IMG/VR virus record: IMGVR_UViG_2740892487_000001
DNA: 34,714 nt
Reading direction: 5' to 3' (one strand)
From: a virus
Lineage: Duplodnaviria > Heunggongvirae > Uroviricota > Caudoviricetes
In this document: one piece after another, positions 4,349 to 23,088 of the stretch
How positions within the stretch are numbered: the first letter of the stretch is position 1
Layout of the letters: every line of letters starts with the position of its first letter
The notes under the pieces: model-generated
What the model saw: the letters and a program-made list of their open reading frames with translations, nothing else
Told to the model about the DNA's origin: nothing
The model's database searches: none
Translations under genes and position numbers: made by a program

Positions 4349-4434
4349 TTTAATTTCTCTATATGTTAAGCAAGCAATATTCATTGCTAGCATGTTTTTG
4401 TATAATGAGTGAACTTTATTTAAAGGTGGTTAAC

Positions 4435-4945
4435 ATGAACTGGAACGAAGTATTCGTATTAAAAGACGATGGACTCCTGTACTGGAGTGACCAATATCTT
4501 TCAAGACCCAAAATGTTCAATATCTCTAAAGAAAAGCCTGCAGGACATATATTCAAGGACAAGAACAGGAAAACATCTTATATAATTATCAGGTATCAAG
4601 ATAAAATATACGCCGCCCATAGGATAATATGGGAAATGTTTTATGGTGAAATCCCTTCAGGAATGCAAATTGACCATAAAGATGGTAATGGGTTAAATAA
4701 TTCAATAGACAACCTGCGTCTAGTTAGTCTCGGTGAAAACCTAAAAAAACAAATCTAAATACACAAACAATACATCCGGGTGCGCAGGTGTTTCATGGCA
4801 TAAGACCCATAAAAAGTGGGTGGCATATATTAGCGACGCAGGGAAGCGCATTAATCTCGGATACTTTAAGTGTCTCGATGATGCAATTGCTGTAAGGCGT
4901 GAGGCTGAAAAGACCTATGGTTATCATGAGAATCATGGTAGGTGA
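4435..4945 (+). CDS. HNH endonuclease with C-terminal AP2 DNA-binding domain (homing-endonuclease-like); frame broken at A7 (4743-4749)
   Basis: HNH motif QIDHKDGNGLNNSIDNLRLVS; after the stop at 4758 the +1 frame continues NTSGCAGVSWHKTHKKWVAYISDAGKRINLGYFKCLDDAIAVRREAEKTYGYHENHGR (AP2-like). Shine-Dalgarno-like AAAGGTGG before the ATG at 4435. Confidence 0.7.
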
Positions 4946-5012
4946 TATCTGACATTTCATTGCTCCAGATACAAGGAATCGCCGCAGCGTAGCTACGGTG
5001 AATTTTGGGCAT

Positions 5013-5035
5013 AAAAAAACCCAGCCGAAGCTGGG
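5013..5035 (-). terminator. Intrinsic terminator downstream of ant
   Basis: Minus strand reads CCCAGC-TTCG-GCTGGG followed by T7, just after the ant stop codon. Confidence 0.7.
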
Positions 5036-5054: not shown

Positions 5055-5957
5055 TCAGTAGTTATGTACTGAAGGAGGTAATTCTTTATTCTTAAGTCTC
5101 ATCCATGCGGAAAGATTCGTTGGTCCGTCTGGCTCATTAATATCAACATCTCGTGTGTGGTTTATTAAAACGTCTCTCGCCATTCCGATAACATACGAGA
5201 ATTCATGACCGTAGTCGTAGCATCTGCCGGAATAGTTCGATTGAATTTGTTTTAATGCCGGATACAGTTCGCGGAATAATGCCTGTGAGCGGTTGGCATA
5301 ATCCCATAGCCATACAAGGCTGTTTGCTTCTTTTGCAGAAAGCTCGTTGGTTTTCTTCTCTTGTTTGCCGATGAACTCGCCTTCAAGCACTACCCTGTGG
5401 ATGTACTCTACTGCTTGCGGTATCTGAGATGAATCAAGCTCTTCAATACTTTCCACGTTGAAACGCTGATGAATCATTGCATAAGCTTCTGGGTACATTA
5501 GATGCTTTTTGCTGACTAGCATATTTACAGCATCACGAAGCGGAGTCCTGTCATCAACAGATGTTTTCTTACGTGCATTTTCTGCCTTTCCCTTCGTCCA
5601 GTAGTCATGCAGCACAGTAAAGCATTCTTCCTGGTACTGAATCAGTTTATCGCGGATGTCAGCACGAACTTTCTCAGGGTTGATGCTGAACAGCCATCCA
5701 TTTAACTTCTTCAAAGGAAGGCAGAGTAGCCTACGAAGCTTACCATCAGCGGCAACCATGTTCATATGAACACAGTTGAATTTGCTAATCTGCTTCATGA
5801 GTTTTGTTTGCTGCGTTGACCAGCTCATTCCAAGGTTTTTAACGATTGGCTTCATCGCAACATATGCAACTCCGGCAGTCATGGCGGTGATAATCTGCTG
5901 ACCATTGAAAGGTACGTAAGAGGTGTTCACTGCTTCTAAAATTGCTATACTATTCAT
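5055..5957 (-). CDS. ant: Antirepressor Ant (P22 immI type; N-terminal part conserved, C-terminal half divergent)
   Basis: From the ATG at 5957: [39 protein letters not shown]..., recalled as the P22 Ant N-terminus; sits directly downstream of arc as in P22. Confidence 0.85.
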
Positions 5958-6025
5958 GTTGGTTTTTCTCCACGAATTTACTGACAACAGAAGCCCTGAC
6001 TGTTCCCGCAGTTGGGGCTTCAACT

Positions 6026-6187
6026 TTACGCGCCAATACGCCCTTCCTTCTTAAAGCTGTCCATTACTCTCTGATAAATCTCAGAGTTAACAGACCGACC
6101 ATTCTCTTCCGCCACCTTGCGTACCAAATCCAATACTTCTTTAGGCCACCGCAAATTGAACTGCGGCATTTTGCTCATTCCTTTCAT
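6026..6187 (-). CDS. arc: Arc repressor (ribbon-helix-helix)
   Basis: [53 protein letters not shown] is near-identical to P22 Arc as recalled. Confidence 0.95.
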
Positions 6188-6201: not shown

Positions 6202-6222
6202 ATAGGTCCACGGTGGACCTAT
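6202..6222. promoter_or_regulatory. Mnt operator (O_mnt), perfect palindrome
   Basis: ATAGGTCCACGGTGGACCTAT, recalled as the P22 mnt operator; lies between divergent arc and mnt. Confidence 0.85.
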
Positions 6223-6229
6223 TGAGAAT

Positions 6230-6250
6230 ATAGTAGAGTGCTTCTATCAT
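6230..6250. promoter_or_regulatory. Arc operator (O_arc) / Pant region
   Basis: ATAGTAGAGTGCTTCTATCAT, recalled as the P22 arc operator; immediately upstream of arc. Confidence 0.85.
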
Positions 6251-6277: not shown

Positions 6278-6532
6278 ATGGCTAGAGATGATCCGCACTT
6301 TAACTTCCGCATGCCTTTGGAAGTAAGAGAAAAATTAAAATACAGAGCAGAGTCAAATGGTAGATCAATGAACTCAGAATTGTTGCAAATCGTCCAAGAT
6401 GCTCTATCGAGACCATCTCCTGTAAAAGGTTATCGCAATGAAGCTGAACGATTAGCCGAGATGCAGGCTGAACAGTTCAAGTCTGTGGTATTTGAGACAC
6501 TTAAAAACATGTATGGCAAGGATGCAAAATGA
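6278..6532 (+). CDS. mnt: Mnt repressor (ribbon-helix-helix)
   Basis: MARDDPHFNFRMPLEVREKLKYRAESNGRSMNSELLQIVQDALSRPSPVKGYRNEAERLAEMQAEQFKSVVFETLKNMYGKDAK matches P22 Mnt as recalled. Confidence 0.95.
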   Translation: MARDDPHFNFRMPLEVREKLKYRAESNGRSMNSELLQIVQDALSRPSPVKGYRNEAERLAEMQAEQFKSVVFETLKNMYGKDAK

Positions 6533-6590
6533 TCGATTACAACCCAGCAAAAAAAAGAAATCATCGCAGCTAAAAAAGTGCCTAGAGCAG

Positions 6591-7112
6591 ATGAAATCAT
6601 CTACAAACCATGATGATTTTGAAATGCACTGGCGAGAATGTCTTGGGCATATAGAAAAGTCTTTCAGTAAGTTGCTCTGTGCAACAAAGCCGGTTAGTGG
6701 AAAATTTAGCAGCCACTTCAACCAAAAGTTCATGCTTAGAAAAACAGACAAAACACTTGCTTACCTTCACCAAGCAAGAAATGCTGATCATCATTCCACT
6801 ATGGAAATCTCAAAACTTGAACCTCCTTATACTACTCTTGGGGCATTTCCGGGAGCAAGAAGCCATTATATTAAAGAGTTAATCATTGATTCAACAGGGA
6901 AAATAGCAAAATACGAAGGCGACCCTATGATAGTTGAGTTTCATCCAGCAACAACTATGCCTATAACCGTAAGAAACCAAGGCAAAGATTATCCACCTCC
7001 AACAGAACATCTTGGCGAAAAGCTTGTTGATATACATCCATCTGTTCTTGCCTATCTCGGTATACAATTTTATGAAAAATGGATAGATGAGTCGTGTGCA
7101 ACGTTTAGATAG
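6591..7112 (+). CDS. Hypothetical protein, AT-rich cargo gene downstream of mnt (start uncertain; an ATG at 6529 overlaps the mnt stop but runs in another frame across an A8 tract)
   Basis: Long ORF 6492-7112 with a visibly AT-rich composition unlike the flanking phage backbone; no family recognised from sequence. Confidence 0.5.
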   Translation: MKSSTNHDDFEMHWRECLGHIEKSFSKLLCATKPVSGKFSSHFNQKFMLRKTDKTLAYLHQARNADHHSTMEISKLEPPYTTLGAFPGARSHYIKELIIDSTGKIAKYEGDPMIVEFHPATTMPITVRNQGKDYPPPTEHLGEKLVDIHPSVLAYLGIQFYEKWIDESCATFR

Positions 7113-7279
7113 TTATTTTTGATAATTTCAAGTATTTCCTCTTGACTTTGATTTACCCAAACGTGATCACACTCATGAAACCAGATTATGCTTCCTGTTT
7201 CGCCTTGTGCAATATAGGTGATCATGTTTTCATTAACAATTATTACTGAGTTATCATGTGCGCAATTTAGTTTTATCAA
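7070..7279 (-). CDS. Hypothetical small protein (69 aa), AT-rich, 3' end overlaps the preceding gene
   Basis: ORF only; no recognisable motif. Confidence 0.25.
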
Positions 7280-7341
7280 TTCGCATATCCTATCGTGACA
7301 AAGTAACTAGAAAAACTAAAGAGGTTGGTGTGTCTGATTCT

Positions 7342-7825
7342 ATGAGTTACGCTGTGCTAGTTGCCGCAACTCTATTTATGGGGATAGGGTTGCAGATTGC
7401 GTGGTTCTTTTTTTTCTAGTTTTATTAAACGCAAAAGAATTGAATCAAGGATATCTGAGATTTCTATTGCTATAGGGAAAAATGCTGAAAATCCAGAGAA
7501 TGAGGCCTGCGCACTGAATTACCTTAAAGAAAAGTTTTCCCCTGAAAAATTTGAAAATAGAATTACTGATGCTCTTGGATTGGTAATATCAGTAATTCAT
7601 ATGCCACTAAGTTTGCTGATAACAGTGTGGTACTTCGCCATGATCGCCGGAAGAATATTTGGTTTCATGAATATAGAGCCTGTAGTTCTTTGGGTTCCAA
7701 TGATACTGCAACTGTTGTTAAGCGTTGCTATCTTTATTTTTTCTGTTTTTATAAAAATTGTCTTTGGAAGATATCCCGGAGAAGCTAAGGGATTTAATAA
7801 AGAATTCATAAAAACTATAAAATAA
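7342..7825 (+). CDS. Putative inner-membrane superinfection-exclusion protein (SieA-like by position); frame broken at T8 (7408-7415)
   Basis: ATG at 7342 gives [24 protein letters not shown] and rejoins ORF 7397-7825 if the run is T7. Several hydrophobic segments; lies between the gp16 and mnt homologs where P22 carries sieA. Confidence 0.45.
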
Positions 7826-7847: not shown

Positions 7848-9694
7848 CTACTGCCGGGTCGCTTCGTTAGCTAAGAGCGGGCGCACGGCAGTAGCAGCCT
7901 GATTTAGCGCTCTTTCATAAGCTGGCGTTCCAGCTTTAGTGTTTGCCAGACGTAAGAGCGCATTCCTTGCTGCTTTGGACTCATACAAACGCATCATTGC
8001 ACCGAAACCAGCCTCAAGCCCCATTGATACGCCAAGAGTCGCAGTTGCGCCAATCGTCCTTATCCTGTTGGCTTGAGATTGCCCCGTCTGAGTTACTACA
8101 TTTGCGGTGTCTGATCTTGCTGTTTGCTGTAGAACTTCATGAAGAGCATCAAGTTCTTTCATGTGCTTTCCAGAAAAAATAGTGTTGTAAATTTCACCGC
8201 CTGACTGAGATTTCAGCTTATTAACTTCCGTGATGAACTTGGCTGGAGAGTCACCGGCCTTTTCCGCTATTTTGCTGACGTAAGCTGCACGCATAGCATC
8301 TTTCCCTTTATCATCCAATGCGCTCCAGATTCGTTTCACGTCAGATGGTTTTCTGCTTAATACAACGGTATTTATAAGTTCAGGACTGGCTTCACTGTTT
8401 GCCTTGTTGAGCTTGTTAGCAATGTTTTTATTAAGCACCTTATTATAAACGTTTGCATAATCGGAATTTGCTTTAAGGTATTTTGCTGCGTCTGACGCAC
8501 CGAGGTTTTTTGCAACTGCGTTACGAAGGTCTTTTGACATTGCATTCTCTACCATATTGGTAGCTGCTTTTGCCTGGTTGGGGAAGACCATAGCATCTCC
8601 CTGAACATTAGATCTAAATGCTGTTCTGTGCTGACGCAATAGATCAAACGTAACATCCAAATCAGTTGCAGGGTTTGCTAATTCTTCACGTAGGTTACGC
8701 AAGGATGTAAGCAGGCTTTGATTGGCTGAAGTCCCAAGCCGTTCCTGTCTTGCGATCGCTGTATTCAGAGCATTCATGGTATTTGTGGTATCAACTGCGG
8801 CATTACCCATTTTATTGGTGACGTCATTGATAACAGCGCCAGCAGCATCCTTCCGCCCCCTTAACGTGGTGGTCAGAGATTTCACCACATCATCAGGGTT
8901 GTACTCACCAAAACGGTCAAAATAATTGCTTACCAGCTTACTACGCGTTGCATATTGCTCCGCTCGCTTTGAGCCTGTCCCGAGCAAAGCCCCCTCGGCA
9001 TCCTGAGTAAGGCCGCGAGTGAAAGCATTTTTCGGCGGGATAACATCAGATGTCATTGGTGTCACACCCATTGATTCTGAGGTGGCAATTTTTTTTTTTT
9101 CGCTACTTCTGGCGCGATATCGCCTTTTATAGCCGTTATTCCACGCCCTATTCCCTTTGCTGCTGCGGAAAGAACACCCTGAGCGGCAAGGTTAACTCCG
9201 GCATTTATGGCTGCATTTTGCGCGAAATCACCTTTCTGGTTTGCGGCTTCTGCCAGTGATCCAATAGCCATGCTTCCTGCCGTTCCAACTCCTGGAACTA
9301 AATACCCGCCAATTGTTTCTCCAGCTTGCGCATAAGGGTCTGTCGGTCGATCGACAGGGCGATAAACATCATCCAAAACCTTGGGACCACCAAGACCCTG
9401 GCTGATTGCATTAATCAGACTTGCGCCACCCTGCAATACGTCAAATGGTATGTTTACCAGACCACGACCAGCCTGCTCTGCAATTTGCCCTGCACTTTGA
9501 CCACCTGTGAGCCAATCGCCAGCTTGTTGCATCAATGATGGTTCTTCCTGTGTTGGTGCATTATTGGCCTGATTAACTGTTTGTTGCTGAACAGCCTGAC
9601 CAGCAAAATACTCATCAATGGCGGTGCCAATATCTTCGGTGCTCGTACCATCAGGAAAGGTAAATGTCTTACCGTTTGCAGTTACTTTCATCAT
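7848..9694 (-). CDS. Ejection (injection) protein gp16-like; frame broken at the T12 run 9089-9100 (A-run encoding KKKK on the coding strand)
   Basis: N-terminus [32 protein letters not shown] resembles P22 gp16; ORFs 9062-9694 and 7848-9071 join with a length change in the homopolymer. Confidence 0.8.
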
Positions 9695-19868: not shown

Positions 19869-21369
19869 TTAAGTTCTCCGTGCGATGGGCCTGATTGGGG
19901 CTGGTATCTTTTTCTCTTTTGGTTTTTTGATGTCGCGCATCATTTTTGCGAAGCGGCGCATCATGTATGCATAGCGAACGGCTGAGAGAACGTCATCGTT
20001 AAGCTTGACGATCTTCCCGTTTTCATCACGGTGATAGAGGCGGAACTCCTCAAAGAATGGCTCACAGGTGTTGAATACTTTGAAGCGTCCATCGAGCATC
20101 ATGTCGCGCAATTCAGTGATGCCAGGCTCAACAGCATTACCGCCATCAGGCCATGTCGCATGCTCCTGCAACATCATAAAACCAGCGTCCGCGTACTGCC
20201 CTTTAAGCTGCTCACCGCCGCCCTTCTCGTGCTGGTTTCCGTCATGAGGCCATGCGGTTGGCACTTTATGCGCCCAAGATTTAACGGCTCCCCACGCCTG
20301 AACGGCTGTTTTTTTCTTTCGCCTTCCACACGCGTGAAACGTAGATTGTGTCTGCGTCCTTATCCCACCAAAGCTGAACCTGCGCCTGCGGGTGATCCCA
20401 TCCGAAATCCATACCGCCAATTACGTAAAAGTGATCAGGGCACTCGAACGGCTGACACTTAATCGTCTCTTCCGGTATCTGGAAGATTCGCCCGCTACCC
20501 ATCGTAGGAATACCGCGAGCACGCGCCTCTCTCTCATGCTCAGGATAGGATGCGATGATTTGCTCTTTCTGCTCGTCGGTGTAGTGCTCAGCGTCATAGA
20601 TGGTCATGTTGACCACTTTCTGCGACTTGCTGGGATTCTTCAGGAACTTGGTAACAACGTCAGACATCCCCATCAGCGGGGTAAACGTCAGAATTGAGAA
20701 TTGCCCGTATTTGTTGGTACGGGTAAGCCCTTCGCCATAAATGCTGTATGGTGGTTCTTCGTCAAACCACACACCGTGGATTGTGTCACCCTGCCAGCGA
20801 GCACGGCCTTGCGAGTATGGTTTGAAGTAGCAGATTGAAATACCATCTTCAACGCCATCAGCCGTGTGATGCTTAACCAGAAGATGATCAACAAGGTTCG
20901 GAAAGAAAGGAGACTTCTTCCAGCTAATGATGTCCTCTTTCGGTATGGAACCGTAGCCTGGCTCACCATTCTCTTCGATACGACCGCACAGGATGCGTTG
21001 AGTCGTTTTGGTTACAGTCTCGTTTGTCTCTCCACCAATCCAGAAGACAACAGGCTCATAGAAACGCTTACCTTTCCACTCACCGCCATATTTACCATCA
21101 GCAGGATAGCCTTTTGTGCCCGGATAACGACCGGTAAGGTGAAACGCGACTTCAGCAGCACCAGTAAATGACTTACCAAGCTGGTTACCAGCCATAAAAC
21201 ATCGCTCTGGATAGTCATGCCCGGCGTCGATGAACTCACGCTGCTTGCTGTATGGCGTAAATTCATATAGCAGGTGTGTGTTCCGGTAGTTCTCTTCTTC
21301 TTCGAGTAGCTCGAGCAACTCGATTTGCTCTTCGTCGCTCAGGTTATCAAGAATCGCGTCCAGTTCCAC
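19869..21369 (-). CDS. Terminase large subunit; frame broken at T7 (20309-20315)
   Basis: ORFs 20281-21369 and 19869-20420 join if the run is one base shorter; position and size match the large terminase. Confidence 0.85.
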
Positions 21370-22883: not shown

Positions 22884-23088
22884 CAGTGCTCACCTTTTAG
22901 TGATGAACCTTGTCACACAGGATTCCGGCCCACAGAAAGGCACCGATCACCAAACCGGCATCCTCAAGGGTCATCCTGAAAGGTTCTGTGTTCATAAGTC
23001 GCGCGTGTGAAGCGCGTTTACTGCGGACATAAAAAAAGCCCTGCATCGCGAGGCTCATTAAATGGACTTTGTGATTTGCAAAAAAAAA

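Follow-up and report, generated by a model that had tools for sequence, protein, structure and literature searches.

An mnt-coupled accessory gene of an Escherichia coli P22-like prophage and its family of predicted HEPN-like proteins

Background

What kind of gene directly follows the repressor gene mnt in the immI region of an Escherichia coli P22-like prophage, and what are we to make of it when its reading frame is broken in the DNA at hand? The question is raised by the locus at 6529–7112 (plus strand) of a 34,714-nt stretch of viral DNA (IMG/VR record IMGVR_UViG_2740892487_000001), referred to here, in its whole length, as the window. The gene, which we call orfX, is frameshifted in the window and would, if intact, encode a 193-residue HEPN-like protein. 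A preliminary description, made by reading the letters of the window, treated it as a cargo gene of no recognisable family. We examined its genomic setting, its alleles, its family and the predicted fold of its product.

The immI region and the variable interval downstream of mnt

The window represents a P22-like prophage of E. coli (Lederbergvirus-type), and its immI region contains the P22-type elements in the P22 arrangement: ant (5055–5957, minus strand; Pfam P22_AR_N/C), the sar antisense RNA (5958–6025; Rfam, 91 bits), arc (6026–6187, minus strand; Pfam Arc) and mnt (6278–6532, plus strand). The 84-residue product of mnt consists of an Arc/RHH domain and the Mnt C-terminal domain (Pfam Arc, 2.8e-27; Repressor_Mnt, 3.4e-11) and shares 79% of its residues with P22 Mnt and 82% with CUS-3 Mnt. 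A consensus scan recovers two divergent promoter-like sites, scoring 10/12 and 11/12, that correspond to Pmnt (6222–6250, plus strand) and Pant (6255–6227, minus strand) as annotated in P22. Upstream of this region, a segment of about 590 bp (4360–4950), between the start of the tailspike gene and the ant terminator, is missing in strain ST12468; it contains, within a low-GC stretch (33–36%), an ORF for a 131-aa HNH_3 endonuclease (4363–4758, plus strand; Pfam 9.3e-21) and may be a homing-endonuclease-type insertion.

Downstream of mnt the order is orfX, an AT-rich spacer, sieA and the convergent gene 16. The superinfection exclusion gene sieA (7331–7825, plus strand) has one T too many in the run 7408–7415 (T8 versus T7), which breaks its frame; tblastn needs two reading frames to cover it, and the corrected sequence matches phrog_7745 (SieA-like) with an E-value of 3.6e-106. 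Within the mnt–sieA stretch, DNA similarity to P22 (about 92%) is limited to mnt and sieA, and the roughly 800 bp between them, which in P22 hold orf59a and the mnt terminator, are unlike P22. The whole mnt–gene 16 interval is variable, with orf59a and sieA in P22, no gene in ST64T, a 199-aa ORF, a YafO-like toxin and hkcB in CUS-3, and two unrelated ORFs in vB_EcoP-720R6. In CUS-3 (L017, 2792–3795) the 199-aa ORF overlaps that for the 139-aa YafO-family toxin (Pfam 3.2e-11), and two tandem mnt-like genes are present both there and in the metagenomic scaffold L020. Some carriers of orfX have an unrelated ORF of 122–130 aa in place of sieA (L004, 3830–4198; L020, 7914–8306), for which neither Pfam nor PADLOC has a match, which indicates that the slot adjoining gene 16 is exchanged independently of orfX. 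In relatives with a different downstream gene, homology stops at about 7333, and the spacer (7113–7330; 33% GC) travels with orfX as one module.

The preliminary description considered the gene strikingly AT-rich compared with the flanking genes and took this as a hint of foreign origin. The contrast is overstated, since the GC content of orfX (38.5%) is close to that of mnt (40.4%) and above that of sieA (34.8%); ant has 43%, gene 16 has 47% and the window 46.2%. Low GC is thus a property of the entire mnt–sieA accessory block, from which orfX does not stand out, and we do not retain foreign origin on the basis of composition.

A convergent 69-aa ORF (7070–7279, minus strand) does overlap the 3' end of the long ORF, by 43 nt, as had been remarked, and yet nothing supports it as a gene. 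It matches only copies of the same locus that are at least 94% identical, none of its seven polymorphisms is synonymous, it matches no family, and PGAP leaves it uncalled in four relatives; it probably arose by chance in the AT-rich spacer. At position 7279, where its minus-strand start codon begins, the window has A and four relatives have T, which changes the start of the ORF from TTG to ATG, and the ATG variant is called by some pipelines (e.g. BvCmsKSP093_01592). We also considered this ORF as a partner or antitoxin of orfX and rejected the idea given the lack of divergent homologues, the absence of synonymous changes and its lack of relationship to the convergent ORFs found 3' of other homologues. 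A structured RNA or terminator in the spacer was likewise dismissed, as the plus strand has no terminator-like site there and the RNA structure score (z = 0.36) indicates no excess.

The intact gene and its coupling to mnt

As it stands in the window, the ATG at 6529–6531 overlaps the mnt TGA at 6530–6532 to form ATGA (6529–6532), and the frame that it opens, MIDYNPAKKRNHRS followed by a stop, ends after 14 codons, having crossed an A8 run at 6549–6556; the long ORF, from TTG 6492 or ATG 6591 to 7112, is in a different frame. In all of this the preliminary description is confirmed by direct reading, and its suspicion that the A run has an anomalous length was well placed, the run being A7 in all 21 E. 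coli genomes that carry the locus and in 16 of the 18 compared sequences (which have the pair A7/A5), and A6 in L020. What had escaped it is a second extra A, in a run at 6572–6577 that is A6 in the window and A5 in all relatives. When one A is taken from each run, a 193-aa ORF extends from ATG 6529, and its product is identical to WP_000568382.1.

The intact alleles, carried for example by E. coli YA-1 and MB53, begin where the preliminary description had placed the start of a cargo gene, at the ATGA overlap. PGAP calls in relatives a 582-nt CDS whose first 4 nt lie within mnt; an AGGA Shine-Dalgarno-like sequence is located 6 nt 5' of the ATG, inside mnt; and the mnt–orfX overlap is found in 18 of 18 close alleles. 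The polymorphisms of orfX comprise 8 synonymous and 6 non-synonymous changes. A further 15 viral contigs of IMG/VR contain the same DNA at about 99% identity, with mnt and orfX coupled in the same way. We conclude that this P22-like prophage of E. coli carries orfX as a genuine accessory ("moron") gene.

It might still have been a conserved gene of the mnt–sieA interval of P22 or Sf6. Searches with tblastn and blastn of 50,697 phage records revealed no homologue of orfX in this interval of P22, Sf6 or CUS-3, and GenBank phage records gave no match to orfX. The place that orfX occupies is that of P22 orf59a, with sieA retained downstream in the window. In P22, orf59a belongs to the mnt transcription unit and is followed by a terminator; unlike orfX, it encodes an unrelated protein of 59 aa and is separated from mnt by 100 nt, with no overlap. 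The consensus scan found no terminator-like site between Pmnt and orfX or between orfX and sieA. By analogy with mnt–orf59a, orfX would be co-transcribed with mnt from Pmnt, and through the ATGA its translation would be coupled to that of the repressor that maintains lysogeny, an operon layout that points to expression of orfX in the lysogen.

Frameshifts in the window

Among 5426 complete E. coli genomes, 21 contain the region 6520–7400 at 98.8–99.8% identity, and in each of them the aligned stretch falls 2 nt short of its length in the window. The homopolymers of the window were also compared with those of its closest relative, strain ST12468 (L005), over about 20 kb of alignable DNA. Each window homopolymer of at least 7 nt exceeds its counterpart: A7 versus A6 at 5013–5019, A8 versus A7 at 6549, T8 versus T7 at 7408–7415, T12 versus T7 at 9089–9100, T7 versus T6 at 20309–20315 and A9 versus A7 at 23080–23088; the A6 run at 6572 is similarly over-long. 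The extra bases break sieA, gene 16 and the large terminase gene (terL) into two frames apiece. Since this expansion goes in one direction and affects essential virion genes as well, the frameshifts of orfX are most probably homopolymer-length errors of the assembly, a judgement that rests on sequence comparison, and the pattern suggests systematic over-calling of homopolymers in it. Frameshifts at A or T runs elsewhere in the window should accordingly not be taken as biology without the reads.

The alternative is that the frameshifts are real, the A7 tract acting as a hot spot of mutation or as a contingency locus, with the gene off, or a pseudogene, in this strain. In its favour, independent sequences show the first run in three lengths (A6 in L020, A8 in the window and A7 in most others), and a costly abortive-infection gene would be selected for loss. 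The A6 allele of L020, whose genes apart from orfX are intact, represents an independent −1 frameshift and makes the A7 tract at least a mutational soft spot. Against this reading, the window would need two separate +1 events 15 nt apart, the concerted lengthening of homopolymers in terL, gene 16 and sieA is a signature of over-calling rather than of selection, and few alleles are frameshifted (1 of 17 other compared sequences, none of the 21 complete genomes); we regard it as unlikely. As to phase variability in general, at least 37 sequences have A7, A6 occurs in a single good-quality scaffold, and the A8 of the window is accompanied by many other homopolymer errors. As a bolder reading, the 5' A7 tract might switch a costly defence gene ON and OFF. 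That the 14-codon frame is joined to the long ORF by programmed −1 frameshifting, or by slippage during transcription, at A AAA AAA A was rejected as the primary explanation, as the relatives, with A7/A5, have one continuous frame and a single slip would not give back native residues 10–14.

A large family with a predicted HEPN fold

The product of orfX matches phrog_23516, of unknown function, from end to end (7e-120). For the protein itself, Pfam, NCBIfam and PADLOC contain no model, a sequence search of the PDB returned no match, and no paper was found that mentions WP_000568382.1 or orfX; the DefensePredictor supplements do not contain its accessions. A word-indexed search recovered only 7 clusters; an exhaustive profile search with HMMER recovered 1,776 cluster representatives, of which 1,303 reach E ≤ 1e-10. 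Nearly all members are stand-alone proteins of 170–220 aa. Four carry N- or C-terminal extensions (P0112, 474 aa; P0076, 397 aa; P0072, 311 aa; P0069, 284 aa) that might hint at sensors or partners, and one extended family member has a weak match to DUF6941.

Conservation was computed on an alignment of 148 family representatives. Three residues, W34, R83 and H88, are invariant (148/148), and R70, D73, Y78, A82, P157 and H160 are each conserved in more than 90%. Directly after the invariant arginine, at position 84, 133 of the 148 sequences have N (79), D (38) or H (16). Together with an AlphaFold2 model, these data define an Rx4H motif, R83-N-A-D-H-H88 (6777–6794, plus strand), at the end of helix 3. 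A second conserved motif, P156-P157-x-x-H160-L-G162 (6996–7016, plus strand), lies right before helix 4, with P157 present in 146 and H160 in 140 of the 148 sequences.

The model, built with the family alignment, has a pLDDT of 96.4 and a pTM of 0.88. It places helices at residues 5–23, 27–51, 60–88 and 170–192, which form an up-down four-helix core of about 100–120 residues, as in HEPN domains. These are defined by an Rx4–6H motif at the end of helix 3 in which N, D or H typically follows the arginine (PMC3710099), and the motif of the orfX protein has both this location and such a polar residue. Ahead of helix 4, about 75 residues of β structure are inserted; the β-rich insertion (residues 94–154; 6810–6992, plus strand) comprises eight short strands, flanked by the Rx4H motif on one side and the final helix on the other.

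A Foldseek search of the PDB, along the lines that the preliminary description had suggested, was carried out and gave no significant match, only helical bundles at non-significant scores. In a separate comparison, with a similar outcome in a further one, HEPN structures account for 9 of the top 60 matches, including 7ae2_A, 5yep_B, 2hsb_A, 1wwp_B, 8xdj_A and 1wol_A, and, also among these, Csm6 (6tug_A) and sacsin (3o10_A). Searches of Pfam and NCBIfam with the 148 family members returned no match; in PADLOC, faint matches to "RTasHEPN" occur in 7 of the 148 (best E-value 0.0019), and this is the commonest PADLOC family among them. When aligned with hhalign to three "HEPN family nuclease" sequences, the RNADxH and RNSVSH motifs fall in register, with a probability of only 2.5% and an E-value of 0.019. 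For the β insertion and the PPxxH(L)G motif, no structural relative or counterpart was found.

Taking the model and the motif together, we consider it likely that the orfX protein has a HEPN fold. The earlier statement that no family could be recognised therefore holds as far as curated families and known functions are concerned, and gives way where structure is concerned, a HEPN-fold assignment now being possible. As part of the best explanation developed below, and at the measured confidence that we grant to that explanation as a whole, orfX appears to found a large uncharacterised family of proteins of about 190–200 aa with a HEPN-type four-helix bundle and an invariant R-[N/D/H]-x3-H.

Genomic contexts of the homologues

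A homologue with 62% identity (L012) is again coupled through ATGA to an upstream gene, in this case for an 83-aa Mnt-like RHH protein with only 23% identity to Mnt. Near this RHH–orfX pair, which may be located in a different mobile element, a gene on the minus strand (L012, 291–923) encodes a predicted membrane protein of 210 aa with a faint PADLOC match to "RTasSLATT" (E 0.007), adjoined by a fragment that resembles the C-terminus of UmuC-type polymerases. The homologues with 47–48% identity are stand-alone genes with their own Shine-Dalgarno sequence, one group adjoining the tailspike gene at the prophage end and the other antiparallel beside the tape-measure gene. Those with 30–41% identity are found between terminase/HNH genes and the lysis cassette. 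A homologue in Pseudomonas fluorescens, the sole locus that comes from a pattern scan of genome contigs with a narrower alignment, adjoins genes for Rz, lysozyme and a P2 gpD-like tail protein. Stand-alone homologues occur in at least four other prophage contexts, the pattern of a moron that moves among prophages.

Possible function

The intact gene most resembles, in its overall traits, the HEPN-based defence genes that prophages carry singly. HepS (STM14_3211), encoded by the Salmonella prophage Gifsy-1, is a solo HEPN tetramer that is inactive by default and is activated by a phage tail-tip protein to cut tRNA, which it cleaves in the anticodon loops, conferring abortive infection (PMC13043305). 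Like the orfX protein with its predicted HEPN fold, HepS is a single HEPN protein of about 200 aa with Rx4H; it is also, as we propose for orfX on the basis of operon layout, a prophage accessory gene product with no partner that is expressed constitutively in the lysogen. The family of orfX is similarly stand-alone, prophage-encoded and devoid of a conserved partner gene, its neighbours differing in at least five prophage contexts. Other HEPN-based abortive-infection effectors borne by phages or plasmids include lactococcal and other Abi proteins (AbiV, AbiD/F, AbiJ, AbiU2) and Tha (PMC3710099, PMC11087260); they differ from the orfX protein in domain architecture, and none is linked to it by a Pfam or PADLOC match. 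Of these, Tha comes from prophages of Staphylococcus aureus and has a phage structural protein as its trigger. The HEPN toxins of HepT/MntA-type toxin–antitoxin systems (5yep, 7ae2, 8xdj) and the minimal HEPN proteins (4nqf, 2hsb, 1wwp, 1wol) are shorter, at 120–150 aa, lack the β insertion and have 6–13% sequence identity to the orfX protein; moreover, HepT/MntA-type toxins are paired with a nucleotidyltransferase antitoxin, which orfX lacks.

On these grounds we favour, at somewhat better than even confidence, the view that intact orfX encodes a solo HEPN RNase that is expressed in the lysogen and provides defence of the abortive-infection type. We infer the RNase activity, the defence role and the existence of a trigger by analogy with other solo HEPN proteins of prophages (HepS, Tha, AbiV-type), which serve as the model. 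The protein would by default be inactive in the lysogen; a component of an infecting phage would switch it on, with the inserted β domain as the candidate sensor; and the activated protein would cleave RNA, either tRNA or mRNA, and so abort the infection. The predicted activity would be that of the HEPN superfamily, namely RNA cleavage that needs no metal and takes place at a composite active site of a dimer. Given that many homologues have no partner gene, constitutive toxicity is unlikely.

The geometry of the mnt–orfX pair, in which a small gene for an RHH protein shares 4 nt at its stop with the start of a larger gene, is the classic one of type II toxin–antitoxin systems, and it invites the reading that an RHH protein, Mnt or Mnt-like, neutralises or represses an HEPN-like toxin that is released upon loss of the prophage or of Mnt. 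The overlap is seen twice, with RHH proteins that are only 23% identical, HEPN toxins are common in such pairs (PMC7641770), and a YafO-type toxin is present in the same interval of CUS-3. Across the family, however, an RHH gene is not a constant companion of orfX: most divergent homologues have none upstream and possess their own Shine-Dalgarno sequence (L006/7, L013, L016, L036–L048). Mnt, for its part, is the established repressor of Pant, a separate role, and P22 has mnt without orfX. We therefore hold an addiction function to be quite improbable, although Mnt-family RHH proteins might double as neutralisers of the orfX product. One might also suppose that the four-helix bundle is not an enzyme at all and that the arginine and histidine serve in binding or structure, in a protein that regulates immI, takes part in lysogenic conversion or acts in exclusion together with SieA, for example. 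The conservation of R-x4-H in 148 of 148 sequences at the exact canonical HEPN position, with the usual N, D or H after the arginine, speaks for catalysis instead, and the homologues that occur without sieA or immI, both in prophages of other kinds and in an element of Pseudomonas, argue against a role tied to these loci; we likewise consider this reading improbable.

The preferred reading, of orfX as a solo HEPN defence gene, combines the familiar with the new. The protein was known as a hypothetical protein in databases and as a PHROG of unknown function, and solo HEPN defence borne by prophages is a known kind of system; what would be new is a large family with a distinctive inserted domain and the unusual coupling to Mnt. 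A bolder form, in which orfX represents a new and widespread family of single-protein HEPN abortive-infection systems that use the β domain as sensor and are wired into the immI operon through Mnt coupling, is put forward tentatively, with clearly less than even confidence. If the prediction is true, at least 1,700 cluster representatives would join the small set of one-gene prophage HEPN defences, and the inserted domain could reveal a new mode of sensing infection. The mnt–gene 16 interval, already the site of SieA and, in CUS-3, of a YafO-like toxin, would then be a slot for defence and toxin cargo that is expressed in the lysogen.
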